9,453 nt of DNA, from contig JAAHGS010000235.1 in the NCBI GenBank assembly GCA_010692645.1, forward strand, positions 1 through 9,453, given 5' to 3'. The notes beneath the pieces are model-generated. The model was given only the letters and a program-made list of their open reading frames with translations, did no database searches and was not told where the DNA came from. Within the stretch, counting starts at the first letter, position 1. Every line of letters begins with the position of its first letter. Positions 1 to 9,204 of the stretch are shown piece by piece. Both the position numbers and the translations under genes were made by a program. This stretch comes from Symploca sp. SIO2E9. GTDB lineage: Bacteria; Cyanobacteriota; Cyanobacteriia; Cyanobacteriales; Coleofasciculaceae.

Positions 1-1229
1 TTCGCCCCCAGTTGCGCCATAGCTCCCGTATGTTTACGAGTCTTTGGCGTAGAGCTGGAAGCTCCACGGTTAGAGAGGTTCGTCCCGAACCCCTGTGCGT
101 GTAGGACACACACCATGGCAGCGGCTATGTCTCGGTCTTCGACAAATCCACAGTGCTTGCACTCATGGAGTCTTTGACTCAAATCTTTAGGCGCAGTATT
201 CCAACACTTAGGGCATCGTTGGGTTGGCTTAACTTTTGTGGTCAAGACTTCGATTTAGACCCCGCCAGCCTCCTCAACCTTATACTTAACCTTTTGTTTG
301 AAAGCCCCAATTCCTACGTCTAGAAGTGAGCGATTAAGCCCGGCTTTTTGACGTTTACGCTTGCTGCCTTTTTTTGCCTTACGAGTCATCCCTTTCAGGT
401 TTAACTCTTCTGTAGCGACCAGGCTATTACCGCTGACAATTTGTGCCGCTACTTTATGTTGCCAATCATCTCGTTGATTAGCTACCTTGCTGCTCAGCTT
501 GGAGACTTGTTTTTGAGTTTGTTTCCAACGCTTAGAGGCTAAGATATTTTTCTTTCTGTTGGGTGTTCGTTTGCGCCTTAGCCTCTTGGAGGCTTGTTTG
601 ACTTTCTCGCTGGTTTTAGCCAAAAATCTAGGGTTTTCTACCTTAGTGCCGTTAGACATTGCTACAGCAGTTTTGCACCCAAAATCCAAACCTATAGCAC
701 CAGTACTAGTTTCTCTAACTGGGTCACAATTGACGGTGATGCTGGCGTACCATTTATGGTTTTTCCAGACAATGGTGCAAGTGGTAGGTCTTCCCCAAGT
801 CCTTGCCCTACCTCGCATTCGTATCTCACCAAGATTGGATAATTCCAGAAAACCATGATCTCCAGTAGTATGGGTTTTCCAACCAGAACTACAAGGATAA
901 GTCCACCCACGATAGAGTCTGCCAGACTTGAATTTGGGATATTTAGCTAACCCTTTGAAAAAGCGATTGAAGGCGAAATCGACTCGTTTGAGAGTGGCTT
1001 GGAGAGCATGAGAACCCAGTTCTTTATATTCTGGGTGTACTTGCTTGAAAGCGGGCAAACAATTTTGTTGCTCTAGGTAGTCAACTGAGTGATTGAACCG
1101 CCGATATTGAGTCTTTCGATTATACAATGCTGCATTGTATAAATCTTTATGCATTCTGTGCCAATAATGCAACTTTTTAGCTTGACTTTTGGTGGGGTAC
1201 AGCCGAAAATTTACACGCTTCGCCTCCAA
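1..1229 (-). pseudogene. tnpB: TnpB (IS200/IS605-family OrfB, RuvC-like RNA-guided nuclease) interrupted by an in-frame TAA. The 3' end is cut by the window edge.
   Basis: The 324-aa ORF (255-1229) has the TnpB layout: N-terminal 'FRLYPT' start, RuvC-I Asp in AIGLDFG (D at 684-686) and RuvC-II Glu in VATEELN (408-410). After the TAA at 255-257 the same frame stays open to position 3. That stretch encodes IEVLTTKVKPTQRCPKCW...HECKHCGFVEDRDIAAA, which is the CxxC...CxxC zinc finger (150-215) and the RuvC-III Asp (129-131). Confidence 0.8.
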
Positions 1230-1529: not shown

Positions 1530-4500
1530 ATGAAACGCATTGTACTCATTGCCGGGTTTGAATCCTTCAACACTGACTTATACCGCAAAGCAGCTGAGCT
1601 GGCAACTAAACGCTGCCCGGAATTAGATATCCTGGTGTTTAGCGATCGCTCCCTCAATTCTGAACCTGCAGCTGTACAAGCTGCTCTACAAGACGCCGAT
1701 GTCTTCTTCGCCAGTCTAATCTTTGATTATGACCAGGTTATCTGGCTGCGCCAACGAGTGCAACAGATTCCCATACGCTTGGTATTTGAGTCAGCCCTAG
1801 AATTAATGAGTTTGACTCAAATCGGTGCCTTTAAAATTGGGGATAAGCCCAAAGGCATGCCTAAGCCAGTTCAATTTATTCTTAGTAAATTTTCCAGTGG
1901 CAAAGAAGAGGATAAACTCGCTGGATACATCAGCTTTTTGAAGACAGGGCCTAAACTCCTAAAATTTATCCCTGTACAAAAAGTCCAAGACTTACGCAAC
2001 TGGCTAATTATCTATGGTTACTGGAATGCTGGCGGCTCAGATAATGTGGCGTCGATGTTTTGGACTTTAGCGGAGAAATACTTAGGGTTAAAGGTAGGAA
2101 CCATTCCGCCTCCGGTAGAAACCCCAAATATGGGATTATTGCATCCAGATTATCAAGGATATTTTGAATCCCCACAAAAATATTTAGAGTGGTATCGCCT
2201 GAGTAAACCAGAAACCTGGCATCTGCCGGTGACAGGCATCTTACTTTATCGCAAGCATGTGGTAACTAAACAGCCCTATATTAACCAGATGATTCGCTAC
2301 TTTGAGCAATCTGGATTAGTACCACTGCCTATTTTTATTAATGGTGTTGAAGGGCATGTGGCGGTAAGGGATTGGATGACAACTGCCTACGAAACTGCCC
2401 AAAGAAAGTTAGGTAAGGTGGCAACTCCTTCCCTATCGACTGAGGCAATGGAAGTTGATGCCATTGTTTCTACTATTGGCTTCCCTTTAGTAGGAGGACC
2501 TGCAGGTTCGATGGAAGCAGGGCGTCAAGTGGAAGTTGCTAAAAGAATTCTTACTGCTAAGAATGTACCTTATATTGTGGCAGCACCACTGTTAATTCAA
2601 GATATTTATTCTTGGACACGCCAGGGTATCGGGGGGTTGCAAAGTGTCGTCTTATATGCTTTGCCAGAATTAGATGGAGCAATTGATCCTGTGCCCCTTG
2701 GTGGTTTAGTGGGAGAAGATATTTATTTAGTTCCAGAGCGAGTCAAGCGACTAACTGGGCGTATCAAGGGTTGGGTTGCTCTGAGTAAGACACCACCAGC
2801 AAACAGACGCATTGCCATTTTACTCTATGGCTTTCCTCCTGGATACGGAGCAACAGGAACAGCAGCTTTATTAAATGTACCGCGATCGCTACTTAAATTG
2901 CTACAGGCACTTAAAGAGCAAGGCTATACCATTGGCGATTTACCTGAAGAGGGTGAAGAGTTAATTCGTATGGTGAAAGAGGCGGATGAAGTGCCAGAGA
3001 ATAAGGAAGATTCTAATAGTTCCTCTCGGGTTAATGTTAAAACCTTGGAAAAATGGTTAGGTTATCTGCTAACTACTCGTATTGAGAAACATTGGAACTC
3101 TCTAAGTGGTGCTGGTATCAAAACCTATGGGGATGAATACCATCTCGGCGGTGTACAGTTAGGGAATATTTGGATTGGCGTGCAACCTCCCCTAGGTATT
3201 GCTGGGGATCCAATGCGGTTAATGTTTGAGAGAGATTTAACTCCTCATCCCCAGTATGCAGCTTTTTATAAATGGTTGCAGAATGACTTTCAGGCTGATG
3301 CTGTAATTCATTTCGGTATGCACGGCACAGTGGAATGGTTGCCTGGTTCTCCTCTTGGTAATACTGGCTATTCTTGGCCAGATATTTTGTTGGGAGATAT
3401 GCCGAATCTCTATATCTATGCTGCCAATAATCCCTCAGAGTCAATTTTGGCAAAGCGCCGTGGTTATGGTGTGTTAATTTCTCATAATGTACCGCCTTAT
3501 GGTCGTGCTGGTTTATATAAGGAGTTGATGGCGCTGCGGGATTTAATCTCGGAGTATCGGGAAGAACCAGAGAAAAATTATGCTCTTAAGGAAGGGATTT
3601 GTAAGAAGATTGTCGATACTGGCTTGGAGGCAGATTGTCCCTTTGAGGATGCCCAAAAACTGGGAATTGCCTTTACTCCCGAAAATGCCCAGATGTTTAG
3701 TAATCACAGTTTTAATGACTATTTATTAAAGCTTTACGAATACCTGCAAGTAGTAGAAAGTCGCTTATTTTCCACTGGTTTACATGCACTGGGTGAGATT
3801 CCGGATTCCGAGCAATTGGCTTCCTATCTGCAAGCCTATTTCGGAGAAGATTTACCGGAAAACTTGATTAACGAGATTGCCTCGGGAACAGATAGCGCTA
3901 GTATCGATAATAAATTTGAACTCAACGGCAAAACTCCGAAATTAGAAGAGGCTTTACAAATCCGTGACTTGCTATCCCAAACTAATGAGGAAATGGTTAA
4001 CCTGTTGCGGGGATTAAATGGTGAATATATCCCCCCAGCACCAGGAGGGGATTTATTAAGGGATGGCCCTGGAGTATTGCCCACAGGCAGAAATATTCAC
4101 GCCCTTGATCCCTATCGGATGCCTTCTCCAGCAGCCTATGAAAGGGGTAGAGAAGTTGCTAAAAAAATTATCGCTCAGCATCTAGAAGAACATAATCAGT
4201 ATCCAGAAACTGTAGCAGTAATGTTGTGGGGATTAGATGCCATTAAAACTCGTGGTGAATCTCTGGGAATTTTATTGGAATTGGTTGGAGCTCAACCTAT
4301 CAAAGAAGGCACAGGGCGAATTGTACGCTATGAATTAAAACCTTTAGCAGAAATTGGACATCCCCGTATTGATGTTTTGGCTAATTTATCTGGTATCTTC
4401 CGGGATAGTTTTGTCAATATCTTGGAATTACTCGATGATTTATTCCTACGGGCAGCCCAAGCCCCAGAATCAGAAGCAGAAAATTTTATCCGCAAACACG

Positions 4501-5258
4501 CTTTAGCACTGCAATCTCAAGGAGTGGAAAATGCCTCTGCCCGGTTATTTTCTAACCCAGCCGGGGATTTTGGTTCCATGGTAAATGAGCGAGTGGTAGA
4601 TAGTAACTGGGAATCAGGAGATGAATTAGCCAAAACCTGGCGCGGACGCAATGCTTTCAGTTACGGTAGAAAAGATAAAGGTCAAGCACGCCCAGAAATT
4701 CTCTCCCAATTACTACAAACCACTAGCCGTGTTGTTCAAGAAATCGACTCAGTAGAATATGGTCTTACCGATATCCAAGAATATTATGCCAATACTGGGG
4801 GTTTGAAGCGGGCAGCAGAAAAAGAAAGTGGCACTAAGGTAAACGCCAGTTTTGTCGAAAGTTTCTCTAAAGATACAACACCCCGCAACTTAGAAGATTT
4901 ACTGCGTCTGGAGTATCGCACCAAATTACTTAACCCCAAGTGGGCAGAGGCAATGGCAAATCAAGGTTCTGGCGGAGCCTATGAAATTTCGCAGCGGATG
5001 ACAGCTTTAATTGGCTGGGGCGGTACTGCCGATTTTACTGATACTTGGGTTTATGATCAAGCTGCTGATACCTATGCTTTTGATTCAGAAATGGCGCAGA
5101 AGTTACGAGAATCTAATCCTGAAGCTTTCCGTAATCTTGTCGGCAGAATGATAGAAGCCCATGGGCGGGGTTTCTGGCAAGCTTCTGAGGAAAAATTGCA
5201 GAAGTTGCGAGAGTTATATGATTTAACGGATGAGGAAATTGAAGGAATAATTAAGTAA
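1530..5258 (+). CDS. chlH: Magnesium-chelatase subunit H family protein (ChlH/BchH-like, CobN/Mg-chelatase superfamily), a short paralog.
   Basis: The 1242-aa ORF has an N-terminus (IVLIAGFES...ADVFFASLIFDYD) that aligns to the ChlH N-terminal domain. It also carries the family signatures HFGMHGTVEWLPG (3309-3347) and LPTGRNIHALDP, which are closer to ChlH/BchH than to CobN. It is shorter than canonical cyanobacterial ChlH (about 1330 aa). Confidence 0.85.
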   Translation: MKRIVLIAGFESFNTDLYRKAAELATKRCPELDILVFSDRSLNSEPAAVQAALQDADVFFASLIFDYDQVIWLRQRVQQIPIRLVFESALELMSLTQIGAFKIGDKPKGMPKPVQFILSKFSSGKEEDKLAGYISFLKTGPKLLKFIPVQKVQDLRNWLIIYGYWNAGGSDNVASMFWTLAEKYLGLKVGTIPPPVETPNMGLLHPDYQGYFESPQKYLEWYRLSKPETWHLPVTGILLYRKHVVTKQPYINQMIRYFEQSGLVPLPIFINGVEGHVAVRDWMTTAYETAQRKLGKVATPSLSTEAMEVDAIVSTIGFPLVGGPAGSMEAGRQVEVAKRILTAKNVPYIVAAPLLIQDIYSWTRQGIGGLQSVVLYALPELDGAIDPVPLGGLVGEDIYLVPERVKRLTGRIKGWVALSKTPPANRRIAILLYGFPPGYGATGTAALLNVPRSLLKLLQALKEQGYTIGDLPEEGEELIRMVKEADEVPENKEDSNSSSRVNVKTLEKWLGYLLTTRIEKHWNSLSGAGIKTYGDEYHLGGVQLGNIWIGVQPPLGIAGDPMRLMFERDLTPHPQYAAFYKWLQNDFQADAVIHFGMHGTVEWLPGSPLGNTGYSWPDILLGDMPNLYIYAANNPSESILAKRRGYGVLISHNVPPYGRAGLYKELMALRDLISEYREEPEKNYALKEGICKKIVDTGLEADCPFEDAQKLGIAFTPENAQMFSNHSFNDYLLKLYEYLQVVESRLFSTGLHALGEIPDSEQLASYLQAYFGEDLPENLINEIASGTDSASIDNKFELNGKTPKLEEALQIRDLLSQTNEEMVNLLRGLNGEYIPPAPGGDLLRDGPGVLPTGRNIHALDPYRMPSPAAYERGREVAKKIIAQHLEEHNQYPETVAVMLWGLDAIKTRGESLGILLELVGAQPIKEGTGRIVRYELKPLAEIGHPRIDVLANLSGIFRDSFVNILELLDDLFLRAAQAPESEAENFIRKHALALQSQGVENASARLFSNPAGDFGSMVNERVVDSNWESGDELAKTWRGRNAFSYGRKDKGQARPEILSQLLQTTSRVVQEIDSVEYGLTDIQEYYANTGGLKRAAEKESGTKVNASFVESFSKDTTPRNLEDLLRLEYRTKLLNPKWAEAMANQGSGGAYEISQRMTALIGWGGTADFTDTWVYDQAADTYAFDSEMAQKLRESNPEAFRNLVGRMIEAHGRGFWQASEEKLQKLRELYDLTDEEIEGIIK
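1642..1649. repeat. HIP1 palindrome GCGATCGC
   Basis: Exact octamer read in the sequence. It is a cyanobacterial signature. Confidence 0.9.
2882..2889. repeat. HIP1 palindrome GCGATCGC
   Basis: Exact octamer read in the sequence. Confidence 0.9.
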
Positions 5259-5340
5259 TAAGTAATAAGTAATAAGTAATAAGTAGGTTGGGTTGAGTAA
5301 TAAGTAATAAGTAATAAGTAATAAGTAATAAGTAATAAGT
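5253..5340. repeat. Tandem heptamer (AAGTAAT / AGTAATA) array in two blocks, STRR-like.
   Basis: Block 1 spans 5253-5284 (about 4.5 units) and block 2 spans 5296-5340 (about 6.5 units). They are separated by GTAGGTTGGGTTGAG (5283-5297). The chlH-like TAA stop (5256-5258) lies inside the first unit. Confidence 0.95.
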
Positions 5341-5342
5341 AG

Positions 5343-5385
5343 GTTGGGTTGAGCAAATGCGAAACCCAACATTTATAATGTTTTT
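5343..5385 (+). terminator. Possible intrinsic terminator for the chlH-like gene.
   Basis: An 8-bp stem pairs GTTGGGTT (5343-5350) with AACCCAAC (5363-5370) around a 12-nt loop, followed by ATTTATAATGTTTTT. The T-run is not adjacent to the stem, so the call is weak. Confidence 0.3.
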
Positions 5386-5421
5386 CTGGAGGGTGAACGC
5401 AATTTTGTGTGGGACTTGAAT

Positions 5422-5470
5422 TCTCCGCGTCTCCGCGTCTCCGCGTCGACCTGTCTCCGCGTCTGGAGCG
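5422..5470. repeat. Tandem octamer TCTCCGCG array.
   Basis: There are three perfect units (5422-5445), a degenerate unit TCGACCTG, one more perfect unit (5454-5461), then TCTGGAGCG. Confidence 0.9.
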
Positions 5471-5573
5471 TCTGCTTACTTATTTCCCCACGCCTTTTTT
5501 CGCTCACCCTTTTCTGGGTTTCGTTTCTCAACCCAGCCTACAGGATTGAGGGCTGAGATACACCTAGTTCTGT

Positions 5574-5608
5574 TCCCTGCTCCCTACTCCCTGCTCCCTG
5601 CTCCCTAA
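5574..5608. repeat. Tandem heptamer TCCCTGC array (5 units), STRR-like.
   Basis: Units read directly: TCCCTGC, TCCCTAC, TCCCTGC, TCCCTGC, TCCCTAA. Confidence 0.9.
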
Positions 5609-5692
5609 AACCGAGAATGATGGCAATGAACCATGAACTATTGCCAAATGCCATAATAGCGGTGAAAGTCCTCAATTTACGATGAAACCGTC

Positions 5693-6100
5693 ATGACACT
5701 GGAATTATTAGCCGCAGAAAAAATAGCTGAACTAGCATTTGGTGCTGTTATCGAAACTGGTGCTAGTGAATTGGTTAAAAAGTTGTGGGGGAAAATTCGT
5801 AACAAACTTAGAAGTGAACCTGTAGCCGAAGCGGCTTTAGTGGAAATTGAGCAAAATCATTCTAGGGAGCAGCTAACGAAGATTGTACCTTTTCTACAGG
5901 TGGAGATGCTTAAAGATCAGCAGTTTGCCCAGGAAATGCAAGCTTTAGCTCACGAAATTAACACTGGCTCGCAAGAGAATATTACCCAGCAGGATTTTGA
6001 AGCTCGTGATAATGCTGGTGTTGTTGGCAAGCAAGTAGGAACAGTTAACAAGGCAGGTGTCACTGAAATTGGAACTCAGATTAACGTGGGAAAGGAGTAA
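5693..6100 (+). CDS. Small helical protein with a Gly/Gln/Val/Asn-rich tail. It is a putative N-terminal effector or adaptor module of the downstream NB-ARC-TPR protein.
   Basis: The 135-aa ORF has an amphipathic N-terminus (MTLELLAAEKIAELAFGAVIETGASELVKKLWGKI), a helical middle and the tail NAGVVGKQVGTVNKAGVTEIGTQINVGKE. It lies on the same strand as the STAND gene, 71 nt upstream of the annotated TTG start. I recognise no enzymatic motif. Confidence 0.6.
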   Translation: MTLELLAAEKIAELAFGAVIETGASELVKKLWGKIRNKLRSEPVAEAALVEIEQNHSREQLTKIVPFLQVEMLKDQQFAQEMQALAHEINTGSQENITQQDFEARDNAGVVGKQVGTVNKAGVTEIGTQINVGKE

Positions 6101-6160
6101 CGGCAGAGGAAGTCCAAGAGTTTTTTAAAAAACTTGAGCAAGGGAATTCCTCAGTTGCCG
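6088..6160 (+). promoter_or_regulatory. Candidate -1 programmed ribosomal frameshift cassette: slippery heptamer G_GGA_AAG, 6-nt spacer, stem-loop.
   Basis: The zero frame reads GTG GGA AAG GAG TAA, so the heptamer 6088-6094 fits X_XXY_YYZ. The spacer is GAGTAA (6095-6100). The stem-loop spans 6101-6160 with these pairs: 6101-6105 with 6156-6160 (CGGCA/TGCCG), 6106-6111 with 6147-6152 (GAGGAA/TTCCTC, with a 3-nt bulge at 6153-6155), and 6113-6115 with 6143-6145. The apex is the palindrome AGTTTTTTAAAAAACT (6119-6134). The -1 frame is open from 6085 and is the frame of the NB-ARC gene. Confidence 0.4.
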
Positions 6161-6171
6161 CTTCCACTAAC

Positions 6172-8436
6172 TTGATTACCACCCCGCCAAACTTAAATAA
6201 CTGGCTTGGTAGAGAAAAGGAAATTAGCCAACTGCAAACCTGGCTCTGTGATACCGCAGTTAATCTGATTGGTATTCAGGGTTTGGGTGGTGTCGGCAAA
6301 TCGGCTTTGGCAGCTTATCTTTATAAACATATTGAGTTTTCGGATAAATTTTGGGCAGATATTAGTCAGAAGCCTGATTTTGTCGTCTTTGCTGAGAAGG
6401 TAATTACTGCTTTTGGTGGGCAAGTTACTAAGCAAGGAGATATCGACGGATTGATTAATGATTTGCTCACCTGCCTTAGTCAGCGTCGGTGTTTGCTGGT
6501 GGTGGATAATCTCGAAACCCTGCTAACCCAATCGCGGCAGTGGCAAGATTCAACCTATGAGCAATTTTTCAGCCGTTGGCTGCAGCAGGGAAGTAACAGC
6601 ACATTGCTACTAACTACCCAGGAAAAGCCAATTCTGTTTCAATCACAACCCTGTTGGCATCTATTGCGGGGAATGAACATTAGTGATGGTGGGCTACTTT
6701 TGCAGCGTCTGGGTATTCAGGAAACTGTTACGCAATTAGAAGAGTTTTCCAAGGCAGTGGATGGGCATCCCCTTACCTTGCAGTTAGTGGCTGGCTATTT
6801 GCGGGAATATTGTCATAGTCAGTTGAGTAGTGCTTGGGAATTAGGATTAAAGCAGTTTGAGTTAGTAGCAGAAGCTCAAGGAGTACACCGAGATAAGCAG
6901 GATGCGCGTTTATCCTGGATTTTACAGCAGCACTTTCAGCGCTTAACCCCTGTGCAGCAAAATTTCCTGGTTAATTTGAGTGTCTATCGGCAAGCATTTA
7001 ACCACCAAGCAGCAGGTTGGATGTTGGCTTCAGAAACAGAAGTAGTTAAGCCAGTGGTAGTGCAGAAGGAATTACGGGAACTATTCAACCGCTCCCTATT
7101 GCTGGAAACTGAAGATAGAAAGTATCGATTTCAGCCTTTGGTACAACAATATGCTCAGCAGCAAACCACTGATATCAATACTGCTCACCAAAAAGCGATC
7201 GCTTACTACAACTCAAATACTAAACAACAACCCTGGCAGACGCTAGAGGATGTCAGAGCCTATCTGGAAATTTTCTATCACTACTGTCAATTAGAACAGT
7301 ATGCCCAAGCCTTTGATACAATCGGCATCTGCGACGAGTTTTTAGATCTACGAGGTTACAATACCATCCGAGTCGAAGTGTATGGACAGTTGGTGCAAGA
7401 GTGGAAACTGAATCAGGATAACCAGTGGAAACTCTCAGCATCTCTGACATTCTTGGGCAATGCATACTATTCCCTCGGACAATACCAACAGGCGATAGAA
7501 TACCATCAGAAGTCATTAAAGATTTTTCGAGCAATTGGCAACCGCTCCGGTATTGCTAATTCTCTGAATAATCTGGGCATAGCATACAATTTCCTAAGAC
7601 AATACCAACAGGCACTCGATTATCTTCAGCAGTCGTTGCAGATATTTCAACAAATCCCTAACCACTCTGGAATTGCTAAGTCTCTGATGAATCTTGGTAT
7701 TGCATACAATTGCCTAGGAAAATATCAACAGGCGCTCGACTATCTTCAGCAGTCGTTGCAGATATTTCAACAAATCGTTAACCGCTCCGGCATTGCTCAT
7801 TCCCTAATGCATCTGGGCATTGTATACAAATCCCTAGGAAAATACCAACAGGCACTCGATTATCTTCAGCAGTCGTTGCAGATATTTCAACAAATCGGTA
7901 ACCGCTCTGGAATTTCGGATTCTCTGAATAATCTGGGCATAGCATACAAATCCCTAGGAAAATACCAACAGGCGCTCGATTATTATCAGCAGTCGTTGCA
8001 GATTAAAAAAGAAATTGGTAACCGCTTTGGAATTGCCAATTCTCTGATGAATCTGGGCAATGCATACTACGCTCTAGGAAAATACCAACAGGCGCTCGAT
8101 TATTATCAGCAGTCGTTGCAGATTAAAAAAGAAATTGGCAACCGCTCCGGCACTGCCAATTCTCTGATTGGTCTTGGTATAGCATACAATTGCCTAAGAC
8201 AATACCAAAGGGCACTCGATTACTTTCAGCAGTCGTTGCCGATTACTCAAGAAATTGGTGATCGTCATGGGGAAGCCAAATCTTGTTTTAATTCTGGATT
8301 TGCCTTAAAAGAACTAGGTAAAACATCAGAAGCTATTACCGCTTATCGAAATGCACGCCAACTATATCAAGCAATGGGACTAGATGCCAAAGTTCAGAAT
8401 TGCGACCATGTGATCGAAACTTTAAATTCAACTTAA
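6172..8436 (+). CDS. NB-ARC (STAND / AP-ATPase) NTPase with a C-terminal TPR array, an NLR-like protein. The true N-terminus is uncertain.
   Basis: Motifs present: Walker A GLGGVGKS (6280-6303), Walker B CLLVVDNLE (6490-6516), LLLTTQ (the hhhTTR-like motif), GHPLTLQLVAGYL (the GxP/'GLPLAL' motif), a winged-helix-like segment LSWILQQHFQRLTPVQQNFLVNLSVY, and at least 8 TPRs. The only in-frame start is a TTG at 6172 with no Shine-Dalgarno sequence. The frame is open upstream to 6085. Confidence 0.85.
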   Translation: MITTPPNLNNWLGREKEISQLQTWLCDTAVNLIGIQGLGGVGKSALAAYLYKHIEFSDKFWADISQKPDFVVFAEKVITAFGGQVTKQGDIDGLINDLLTCLSQRRCLLVVDNLETLLTQSRQWQDSTYEQFFSRWLQQGSNSTLLLTTQEKPILFQSQPCWHLLRGMNISDGGLLLQRLGIQETVTQLEEFSKAVDGHPLTLQLVAGYLREYCHSQLSSAWELGLKQFELVAEAQGVHRDKQDARLSWILQQHFQRLTPVQQNFLVNLSVYRQAFNHQAAGWMLASETEVVKPVVVQKELRELFNRSLLLETEDRKYRFQPLVQQYAQQQTTDINTAHQKAIAYYNSNTKQQPWQTLEDVRAYLEIFYHYCQLEQYAQAFDTIGICDEFLDLRGYNTIRVEVYGQLVQEWKLNQDNQWKLSASLTFLGNAYYSLGQYQQAIEYHQKSLKIFRAIGNRSGIANSLNNLGIAYNFLRQYQQALDYLQQSLQIFQQIPNHSGIAKSLMNLGIAYNCLGKYQQALDYLQQSLQIFQQIVNRSGIAHSLMHLGIVYKSLGKYQQALDYLQQSLQIFQQIGNRSGISDSLNNLGIAYKSLGKYQQALDYYQQSLQIKKEIGNRFGIANSLMNLGNAYYALGKYQQALDYYQQSLQIKKEIGNRSGTANSLIGLGIAYNCLRQYQRALDYFQQSLPITQEIGDRHGEAKSCFNSGFALKELGKTSEAITAYRNARQLYQAMGLDAKVQNCDHVIETLNST
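7195..7202. repeat. HIP1 palindrome GCGATCGC
   Basis: Exact octamer read in the sequence. Confidence 0.9.
7432..8391 (+). repeat. Eight tandem 120-bp (40-aa) TPR-coding repeats. The central six (7552-8271) are near-identical at the DNA level.
   Basis: A 36-nt block TATCTTCAGCAGTCGTTGCAGATATTTCAACAAATC is exact at 7621, 7741 and 7861. A 65-nt block is exact at 7954-8018 and 8074-8138. The repeats are phased exactly 120 bp apart. Confidence 0.95.
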
Positions 8437-8517: not shown

Positions 8518-8895
8518 CTACCAATTAATTACCGTCAGAACATTAACCTTGGCAAATTCCTGATCAGCCGTTACTAAAGTTGCCGAATTTTGGATCGCCA
8601 TTGCCGCAATGATAGCATCCGGTAATTTCAACCGAAATTGTTGGCGAGTTTCAATGATTTTCTCAACCAGTAATATGTCAGTTGACACTAAACTAATCAC
8701 CTCTACTCGTTGAACAAACTGCTGAAAAAGTTGACGATCAGCTTGAGTCAGCCCAGAAAACGCCAGAAACTCAATTTGGCTAATCACTGAAATTCCTAGC
8801 CAATCAGCATTTAGCAATAATTGAACGAGTTGATAATTTCCCTGGAGTAGCGCTACAATTGCATTCGTATCCAACAGGTAGCGATCACCACTCAT
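8518..8895 (-). CDS. vapC: PIN-domain toxin (VapC-like ribonuclease) of a type II toxin-antitoxin pair.
   Basis: The 125-aa protein starts at MSGDRYLLDTNAIV. It has the PIN acidic residues in the expected order: LLDTN, SQIEF, LPDAIIAA, VTADQEF. Its ATG (8893-8895) overlaps the upstream antitoxin stop. The longer ORF start at 8931 would add 12 non-conserved residues. Confidence 0.85.
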   Translation of the reverse strand: MSGDRYLLDTNAIVALLQGNYQLVQLLLNADWLGISVISQIEFLAFSGLTQADRQLFQQFVQRVEVISLVSTDILLVEKIIETRQQFRLKLPDAIIAAMAIQNSATLVTADQEFAKVNVLTVINW

Positions 8896-9109
8896 CCCGG
8901 AGATTCCTCTGCATAGCAACTGCATCTCCATTCCAGGTTAATTGACCTACCAAATCAGAGAAATCATACTTGAACAGCGGCTTCTCGACAGATGAAATTG
9001 GATTCAATACAATGACGACATTGACCTCGGCATCTGCTAATTGGGTCGGAATATTAAGATTCAAACAACCAGACTCATCAATTTTCGTCGTCAGTTTTAT
9101 AACTTCCAT
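8885..9109 (-). CDS. Putative antitoxin partner of the PIN toxin (VapB-like).
   Basis: The 74-aa ORF starts at ATG 9107-9109 (MEVIKLTTKIDESGCLNLNIP...). It lies directly upstream of the PIN gene and overlaps it by 11 nt (8885-8895). The C-terminal ...GDAVAMQRNLRDEW tail is typical of small cyanobacterial antitoxins paired with PIN genes, from my recollection rather than a search. Confidence 0.65.
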   Translation of the reverse strand: MEVIKLTTKIDESGCLNLNIPTQLADAEVNVVIVLNPISSVEKPLFKYDFSDLVGQLTWNGDAVAMQRNLRDEW

Positions 9110-9204
9110 GATCAAGAGCGTGAAAGATTTCTTTCTAGCTTATCCTAGTAGTGCGATCGGTACGCCTCTAGTCGTTGATCATACGGACAAATCTTGACAA
9201 TTAA

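Follow-up and report, generated by a model that had tools for sequence, protein, structure and literature searches.

In the Bell/BASS (bacterial amyloid signalling sequence) pairs of bacteria, a small helical protein with a G/N/Q/V-rich tail is encoded directly upstream of a collinear gene for a protein with an NB-ARC domain and tetratricopeptide repeats (TPRs), and the same work reported internal repeat identities of 80-90% in bacterial NOD-like receptors (NLRs) (bioRxiv 10.1101/2020.01.06.895854). A second system, Bab/Agp of E. coli, pairs a TPR sensor with a small helical membrane-targeting protein; the N-terminus of the adjacent sensor templates the C-terminal amyloid motif of this protein. 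The system acts in antiphage abortive infection, and for no other bacterial pair of this kind has a function been demonstrated (bioRxiv 10.1101/2024.11.07.622273). Furthermore, fungal NLRs, including those with TPRs, show concerted evolution, repeat-number polymorphism and selected sites on the concave side of the repeats (PMC4986451). Here, we describe a locus with the Bell/BASS gene order in a stretch of cyanobacterial DNA of 9453 nt (contig JAAHGS010000235.1, referred to as the window), in which a 135-aa open reading frame (ORF) without a family match (5693-6100, plus strand; the partner ORF) lies 71 nt upstream of, and collinear with, an NB-ARC-TPR ORF of 754 aa listed from TTG 6172 (6172-8436, plus strand; the receptor). 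The comparison of homologous loci supports the prediction that the receptor has no conserved start codon and is read from the partner ORF by a -1 frameshift at the heptamer G_GGA_AAG. The best explanation of the whole locus, which we consider likely, is that an NLR with a shuffling TPR sensor is recoded out of its partner ORF.

The identity of the receptor was assigned by family matches, namely to Pfam NB-ARC (41.3 bits, cut-off 23.5; aa 14-230) and to TPR_12 (228.8 bits, cut-off 30.1), TPR_10 (179.5 bits) and TPR_1 (178.7 bits). Its Walker A sequence GLGGVGKS occupies positions 6280-6303 (aa 37-44) and the Walker B stretch LLVVDNLE spans aa 108-115; an NB-ARC domain with both motifs is thus followed by superstructure-forming repeats, which is the architecture of NLRs. 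These matches bear out the claim, made in a preliminary description of this DNA, that the repeats belong to the sensor of an NLR-type receptor of the STAND class (signal transduction ATPases with numerous domains). An AlphaFold2 model based on 120 homologues reached a predicted local distance difference test (pLDDT) value of 91.9 and showed 17-residue helices alternating from residue 336 to the C-terminus. Its best whole-chain fold match in PDB was 6MFV, a STAND-TPR protein, and the TPR arm matched LGN/Pins and consensus TPR (CTPR) proteins in both fold and sequence. We conclude that the protein is an NLR-type STAND ATPase composed of NB-ARC and an arm of 40-residue LGN-type TPRs, with 7432-8391 as the sensor arm. 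A PADLOC search returned generic TPR models and no Avs or bNACHT model. In the listed ORF, 13 residues precede the NB-ARC match, and an N-terminal effector or signalling domain would be present only in the predicted frameshift fusion.

The evidence for such a fusion lies at the junction of the two ORFs. The heptamer G_GGA_AAG (6088-6094) has the form X_XXY_YYZ, is in phase with the partner ORF and stands 3 nt before its TAA stop codon (6098-6100), while the receptor frame, which is -1 relative to the partner ORF, is open from 6085. The linker read in this -1 frame, GVTAEEVQEFFKKLEQGNSSVAASTN (6094-6171, plus strand), precedes any canonical start codon. In the Bell/BASS arrangement, as seen in homologous loci including L007 and loci within L026-L044, the tail motif is present on both partners; the linker GVTAEEVQEFFKKLEQGNSSVAASTN aligns with the sequence that follows the motif in these classical NLR partners, e.g. 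that of L007, and the NLR ORF of the window has no motif copy of its own. We then compared 27 distinct junctions, representing 41 loci in genomes and metagenomes. Sixteen of them combined a short gap (129-188 nt from the partner stop codon to Walker A) with a receptor lacking its own motif. Among these, all 11 distinct junctions with a -1 frame relation carried an in-phase heptamer 0-3 nt before the partner stop codon, which was G_GGA_AAG or G_GGA_AAC in the window, L001, L011, L012 and L022, and A_AAA_AAG in L013, L017, L019, L025, L027 and L028. The heptamer was found in none of the 15 other junctions (11 long-gap and 4 in-frame), and its background in partner ORFs was 0.85% per codon. The single short-gap exception is L018, and a C6/C7 homopolymer indel is all that distinguishes it from its near-twin L019. 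Receptors of the long-gap loci (11 distinct) possess an ATG of their own and are significantly similar to the partner tail in an N-terminal segment, with z = 7.8-12 in 12 of the 13 distinct pairs compared.

The four in-frame short-gap junctions, which include the Microcystis type, form a sister class in which the partner stop codon is always TGA, usually followed by CTG. Its members are L008 (2974-3003), L009 (76-105), L010 (2438-2500), L021, L046-L051 and L054; a start codon is either absent or located 2 codons before Walker A, and the Microcystis-type partner cluster contains 187 sequences. The three-frame stop TGACTGACTGA of L008 and L009 had been considered as evidence against recoding, a view that was overturned when this class proved to be in frame with a TGA stop codon and devoid of start codons. 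Two other candidate elements in the window were rejected as well: the T6A6 run (6117-6128) is located beyond the stop codon and is not conserved, which disqualified it as a slip site, and AAGGAG at 6092-6097, a candidate Shine-Dalgarno sequence of the receptor, is followed by no start codon and is absent in L001.

All these observations have to be weighed against the possibility that the locus holds two ordinary separate genes, i.e. that translation of the receptor begins at TTG 6172, that the conserved C-terminal codons Leu-Gly-Lys produce the heptamer incidentally and that the two proteins interact without being fused. TTG 6172 is a legal start codon and yields an intact NB-ARC domain, the partner homologues retrieved by a word-indexed protein search are all annotated as small separate proteins, and the RNA structure downstream of the heptamer is weak. 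However, homologues carry CTG, CTA or CTC, i.e. an ordinary Leu codon, in place of this TTG. Upstream of Walker A, neither ATG nor GTG nor TTG occurs in L012, L013, L025, L027, L046 and L049, and in the first four of these the linker is nevertheless conserved with a dN/dS ratio below 1. More generally, dN/dS of the linker in the receptor frame was 0.13-0.77 in all 36 informative pairs, and identity was still 61% where synonymous sites were saturated, showing that purifying selection acts on the linker even though it has no start codon. Moreover, the frame relation is always -1 in the heptamer class, the change from G_GGA_AAG to A_AAA_AAG stays slippery, and the motif copy found at the N-terminus of the classical partners is missing from these receptors. 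We therefore regard two separate genes as an unlikely arrangement, and the most economical reading is probably -1 frameshifting in the class of the window and UGA readthrough in its sister class. Taken together, it is reasonably probable, in our judgement, that in one cyanobacterial NLR lineage the receptor has lost both its start codon and its amyloid motif and is made only by recoding, giving few receptors and many executioners in a fixed ratio.

The partner ORF is predicted to encode a bundle of five helices (aa 8-90), the first of them hydrophobic, and a disordered 43-aa tail (aa 93-135); AlphaFold2 pLDDT was close to 90 over aa 11-90 and stayed below 50 over aa 93-135. The tail is rich in G, V, N, T and Q, which make up 61% of its composition. 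Compared with a Symploca copy, the ORF showed 92.8% DNA identity and a dN/dS ratio of 0.17. In a profile search, 317 clusters (representatives at 50% identity) scored E<=0.001, and among the best 150 listed nearly all were 120-155 aa long. Searches of Pfam, NCBIfam and PADLOC gave no match. The same module also occurs uninterrupted, together with a G/N/Q-rich segment, at the N-terminus of P0188 and P0242, which are NB-ARC proteins of about 960 aa with highly repetitive 42-residue TPRs, and, again with a G/N/Q-rich segment, at the N-terminus of P0234, a 617-aa CHAT-TIR protein. Since uninterrupted fusions of the module with NB-ARC and TPRs exist in other lineages, the fused architecture is viable.

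Several points weigh against a recoded receptor with an amyloid-templating partner. In the window, TTG 6172 could start an independent protein of 754 aa, and the frameshift product is itself a prediction from the nucleotide sequence. A nine-pair long-range stem starting 6 nt after the heptamer contains 1-2 covarying pairs in five sequences and has a consensus energy of -8.4 kcal/mol, so that a downstream RNA structure is weakly supported. The fold search with the partner gave no PDB match with E below 0.8, and the term "Bell-like" is thus used by analogy; furthermore, the tail encoded in the window is not significantly similar to the motifs of the classical partners.

These findings led us to propose the following sequence of events. 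The concave groove of the TPR arm would bind a variable ligand, and this binding would release the NB-ARC switch and let the receptor oligomerise. The receptor itself would arise when a ribosome slips by -1 at 6088-6094 and reads from the 135-aa ORF into NB-ARC-TPR, giving a predicted fusion of 914 aa that would contain the peptide GVTAEEVQEFFK. A single mRNA would thereby yield much free 135-aa protein and little 914-aa fusion, in which bundle and tail are also present. On the model of NWD2/HET-S and Bab/Agp, the oligomerised fusion would cluster the tails, which may then nucleate a cross-beta fold templating the tails of the free protein. As in such systems, templating would activate the membrane-targeting bundle of the free protein and cause cell death, with the hydrophobic first helix presumably attacking the membrane. 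Neither frameshifting nor readthrough is mentioned in the papers on BASS, Bab/Agp, the STAND survey or GeneTack, and no paper combining these topics was present among the literature searched.

If the recoding is true, the locus would represent a single-mRNA, fixed-ratio version of amyloid NLR signalling in which the receptor carries a built-in seed, and it would explain how a set of cyanobacterial NLR genes that look start-less or truncated in annotations can be functional. It would also be a natural test of the amyloid-templating model, because this model requires the motif of the partner to be present on the receptor as well, and here the receptor would borrow it. The junction (6088-6100), located 1.3 kb upstream of the repeat array in the same operon, would matter more than the array itself and is directly testable.

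The array was resolved by Tandem Repeats Finder as a period of 120 nt at 7454-8243 (6.6 copies, 82% matches, 0% indels, score 878), and eight 120-nt units can be phased from 7432, every one of them in the frame of the 754-aa ORF. It is preceded by a cap region of degenerate N-terminal TPR-like helices (7177-7431, plus strand; aa 336-420; helices 336-348, 358-373, 377-393 and 397-410 in the model). The array begins with a divergent first unit, R1 (7432-7551, plus strand; 61-72% DNA identity to R2-R7), continues with six homogenised units, R2-R7 (7552-8271, plus strand; helix A at repeat positions 38-14 and helix B at 18-34), and ends with a degenerate capping unit R8, a C-terminal helix and the stop codon (8272-8436, plus strand), R8 being about 40% identical to R2-R7 and the protein finishing with the soluble end 'AYRNARQLYQAMGLD'. 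A gap-free HMMER alignment to consensus CTPR and LGN/Pins placed each repeat position one above the corresponding TPR position, in agreement with the register that had been deduced from the LG and Y residues, and the TPR hallmark residues L8, G9, Y12, A21, L/Y/F25 and S28 were invariant or conservatively replaced. The preliminary description was accurate as to the 120-bp phasing and the exact runs, as 36 nt recur at 7621, 7741 and 7861 and 65 nt at 7954 and 8074; further runs of 56 nt (7601/7841) and 31 nt (7559/7919) were also found. Its term "near-identical" was too strong, since R2-R7 share 73-88% of DNA and 60-85% of protein residues, and R1 and R8 are still more divergent. Tandem Repeats Finder scored a 360-nt, i.e. 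three-unit, period slightly above the 120-nt one (window 7454-8243; L011 6765-7456), and the helix-A parts of R2 and R5 are mutually closest, both of which may be a trace of a three-unit duplication.

It was also suggested earlier that such repeats are prone to assembly collapse, and the array might accordingly be an artefact, in which units of a longer or different array were collapsed or joined into chimeras. Some relatives lend substance to this concern: L007 (5533-7917) contains some 20 units that are 95-98% identical, and its receptor is split into ORFs of 949 and 446 aa by a single-base frame break near 6832, either through an assembly or sequencing error or because it is a pseudogene, and several homologues lie on very short contigs. 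Collapse is a real risk in relatives with units 95-98% identical. In the window it is unlikely, since no exact repeat exceeds 65 nt and no two units are the same, the eight units differing pairwise by at least 12%; moreover, the ORF is intact and the array is closed by a unique C-terminal cap. We hold an artefactual array to be very improbable.

To follow the evolution of the array, we used two close homologues, L001 from Symploca sp. SIO3C6, found by a genome scan with the NB-ARC half, and L011 from Symploca sp. SIO2B6, found via the partner protein and syntenic. The DNA identity of NB-ARC was 92.1% between the window and SIO3C6, 92.9% between the window and SIO2B6, and 95.8% between SIO3C6 and SIO2B6, with dN/dS of 0.21-0.33; NB-ARC is thus under purifying selection, as is the partner ORF. 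The unit counts in this comparison, which is one between species, were 7 in the window (R1 and the six homogenised units), 6 in SIO2B6 and 9.5 in SIO3C6, the two latter loci being syntenic; the expectation that repeat number is polymorphic thus held among three relatives with 92-96% identical NB-ARC. Units were 77-96% identical within a gene and 70-82% identical to any unit of the other lineage. As repeats are more alike within than between genes while NB-ARC is 92% identical, the array evolves in concert. In line with this, R2-R7 share the derived states ALDY (helix B), K17 and N37, which are absent in R1 and in every Symploca unit, and R1 is orthologous to the first unit of SIO2B6 (85%). Between SIO2B6 and SIO3C6, the units B4~C3 (94%), B5~C6 (92%) and B6~C9 (91%) are orthologous, and the others were inserted or lost. 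Individual units are mosaic: nucleotides 1-48 of R2 are nearest to R5 (6 differences), whereas nucleotides 49-120 are nearest to R4 (4 differences) and differ from R5 at 15 sites, and unit nucleotide sites 17 and 73 occur in all four combinations among R2-R7. Such conflicting nearest neighbours of unit halves indicate recombination among units. Hence, the proposal of unequal recombination or concerted evolution was confirmed, and the comparison shows that the array evolves by unequal recombination and gene conversion, which keep the scaffold homogenised and have changed the unit number between close relatives.

Changes were also found at both ends of the array. SIO3C6 (L001 9078-9197) lacks 60 cap residues, HYCQLEQY being fused to QQAIEY, whereas L011 and the window (7300-7490) keep this region; the loss is as expected from recombination between a degenerate and a canonical TPR. 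The C-terminal module has been exchanged too, the window having a soluble cap in common with P0004, P0005 and P0008, and the Symploca genes (L001 10278-10601, L011 7307-7786) a cap with a hydrophobic tail in common with P0012. The latter tail is predicted to be transmembrane (WQLVLSFVAVLVAFPFALVIFVLL...) and would give membrane-anchored receptors.

With respect to the location of the differences, the TPR positions 2, 5, 6, 9, 12 and 13 contact the ligand in HOP and lie on the concave face, and the most variable TPR positions are 2, 5, 9, 12 and 13 plus 33 and 34 (PMC1261162). The concave test set was thus fixed beforehand from the literature as repeat positions 3, 6, 7, 10, 13 and 14. This set holds 61 of the 169 pairwise amino-acid differences, that is 36% of them in 15% of positions, with a permutation P of 2.5e-4, or 0.003 when tested against exposed helix positions only. 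On a helical wheel (100 degrees per residue), the six positions span an arc of 120 degrees, and the invariant L5, L8, G9 and Y12 lie opposite. The preliminary description had confined the variation to helix A, but by region helix A accounted for 45% of the differences, positions 32-34 and the loop for 17% each, helix B for 12% and the turn for 9%. The residue alternatives that it listed were correct, though it missed position 25 (L/Y/F) and positions 32-34 (FQQ/KKE/TQE), which vary as much as helix-A sites; overall, the most variable positions were 3, 6, 7, 13, 14, 25 and 32. Nor was helix B almost invariant at synonymous sites, as had been stated: the proportion of synonymous differences was 0.30 in both helices, and only codons 26-29 were fully invariant. 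The assignment of the variable sites to the concave face was supported, the canonical set being enriched. Positions 2, 14, 16 and 17 vary in the window gene and are not hypervariable across the family. These data show that amino-acid change concentrates on the exposed helix-A face lining the concave groove, plus positions 25 and 32.

Whether this pattern reflects diversifying selection, as had been suggested, was approached by several counts. Pooled dN/dS of R2-R7 by the Nei-Gojobori method (NG86) was 0.78 at the sites listed earlier and 0.40 overall, but the window alone offered too few synonymous sites, and this measure was set aside as a decider. Parsimony counts of the single-likelihood ancestor counting (SLAC) type on a neighbour-joining tree flagged positions 6 and 32, and were dropped because shuffled two-state sites inflate them; tree-based counts were not relied on, as recombining repeats violate tree methods. 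Instead, we used a tree-free minimum-spanning count, i.e. the fewest mutations linking the codons at each position, and compared nonsynonymous changes with the array-wide synonymous rate. The resulting ratio for the six concave positions was 1.22 (P = 0.25) in R2-R7 of the window, where exposed helix-B positions gave 0.20 and the remaining positions 0.33; it was 2.10 (P = 0.009) in SIO3C6 (exposed helix-B 0.14), 2.0 (P = 0.04) in the near-identical units of L007 (exposed helix-B 0) and 1.35 (P = 0.05) in 21 pooled units (exposed helix-B 0.31). The rate of change at the concave positions is thus about six times that at helix-B positions of equal exposure; the latter are strongly conserved, and the contrast between the faces is robust.

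A possible alternative is relaxed constraint alone, in which the surface of helix A drifts, the fold and gene conversion hold the rest and no ligand-driven selection operates. This would agree with the window ratios of 0.78 and 1.22, neither of which is significantly above 1, and with an inflation of the tree-based excess at positions 6 and 32 by recombination. However, it does not account for the ratios of 0-0.31 at exposed helix-B positions, for those of about 2 at the same six positions in the relatives, or for the hypervariability of these positions within 109 homologues; moreover, since gene conversion acts on all positions alike and homogenises them equally, it cannot create the contrast between helix faces. 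Drift as the sole cause accordingly appears doubtful. Nonetheless, a few observations count against selection on a concave binding face in this gene: relaxed constraint would be enough to explain the window gene alone, the counts are small and the tree-based ones inflated by recombination, positions 25 and 32 share the packing stripe of helix B with the core residues A21 and S28/L29 and are not assigned to the groove, and the placement on the concave face is predicted from in-register alignment and the literature. The preliminary description had named a dN/dS ratio at or below 1 at the contact sites as a sign against diversifying selection, and with 0.78 and 1.22 the window array does not clearly exceed this limit. 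Altogether, the data suggest positive selection at the family level, seen in the relatives, and do not demonstrate it for the window gene, so that diversifying selection remains a suggestion.

The gene is an average member of its family. At least 4 phased 40-residue units were present in 110 of the best 120 homologues, among which the window ranked 63rd by internal identity, and the variability profile of 109 homologues peaked at positions 3, 13, 6, 32, 25, 7 and 10, with a Spearman rho of 0.77 against the window. The best self-shift identity over 100 aa was 83% for the window, 90% for L001, 84% for L011 and 98% for L007, and the window thus narrowly missed the threshold applied to fungi, which is an identity of >85% across at least 100 aa. 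This mode of repeat evolution has been described in fungal NLRs and remarked on in bacterial ones; the original observation on the repeats is real but was overstated and concerns an ordinary instance. The TPR result hence adds one ordinary member to a known class, and at the same time provides a quantified bacterial case of a homogenised scaffold with repeat gain and loss and concave-focused change, previously only suggested for bacterial NLRs.

The remaining features of the window flank this cassette. A TnpB-family ORF with a TTG start (255-1229, minus strand) matches profile positions 2-335 of 389 alone, and part of its C-terminus may be missing. In L001 and L013, TnpB genes flank the cassette as well. 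The next gene encodes the magnesium chelatase H subunit (1530-5258; BchH model, 1577 bits), and between it and the partner ORF there are three tandem arrays, TAAGTAA x12.9 (5252-5341), TCTCCGCG x5.4 (5422-5464) and CTGCTCC x5.3 (5570-5606). Short heptamer repeats are common in filamentous cyanobacteria, and the three arrays, of heptamer or octamer type, are similar to them; L001 and L007 also have similar short tandem arrays upstream of the cassette. Directly 3' of the receptor, a PIN (VapC-like) toxin and a small overlapping antitoxin-like ORF are encoded on the minus strand (8518-9115), and in the Aerosakkonema homologue L010 PIN_3 and PhdYeFM genes (5285-6200) are likewise located directly downstream of the receptor. 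A 93-aa antisense ORF (7253-7534, minus strand) overlaps the start of the array and is most likely a by-product of repeat composition; similar antisense ORFs occur in L001 and L011. An Rfam search of the window found nothing.

Compared with known systems, the receptor resembles the fungal NLRs of the Podospora nwd/het-e family (PMC4986451) in combining NB-ARC or NACHT with superstructure-forming repeats that vary in number and evolve in concert; in these fungal proteins the repeats are of the TPR, ANK or WD type and show high internal conservation. It differs in its bacterial host and in its 40-residue LGN-type units, which are not of the fungal type; in the fungal proteins variable or positively selected sites lie on the concave TPR face, whereas selection above 1 is not shown for the window gene. 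The solved structures closest in sequence (E 1e-43 to 1e-49) and in fold are the TPR domain of LGN/Pins (GPSM2) and CTPR, whose 40-residue units align gap-free, but these are eukaryotic scaffolds or designed proteins without NB-ARC and with units that are not homogenised, and the relation is confined to the TPR fold. In contrast to the sensor of the Bell/BASS pairs, the receptor of the window lacks both a motif of its own and a conserved start codon, and the motif would come by translating through the partner ORF; the bundle itself can be compared to a Bell domain by analogy. The Bab/Agp sensor is a TPR-GreA/B-PIN protein and not an NB-ARC one, that system is made of two separate proteins without recoding, and no sequence or fold similarity was detected between it and the partner of the window. 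With regard to the mode of expression, the nearest counterparts are the programmed -1 frameshifts of dnaX (tau/gamma), IS3 transposases and the phage tail chaperones G/GT, which use the same type of heptamer, including the A_AAA_AAG found in many homologues of the window. The window belongs to another gene family and has no clear hairpin, an upstream Shine-Dalgarno-like element was not found, though no search aimed at one was made, and its sister class seems to use UGA readthrough. As in dnaX, IS3 and G/GT, a short product and an extended fusion would be made from one mRNA, with the zero-frame stop codon beside the slip site, and an immune-type receptor would, if the recoding is true, join the short list of bacterial genes that set their product ratio by recoding.

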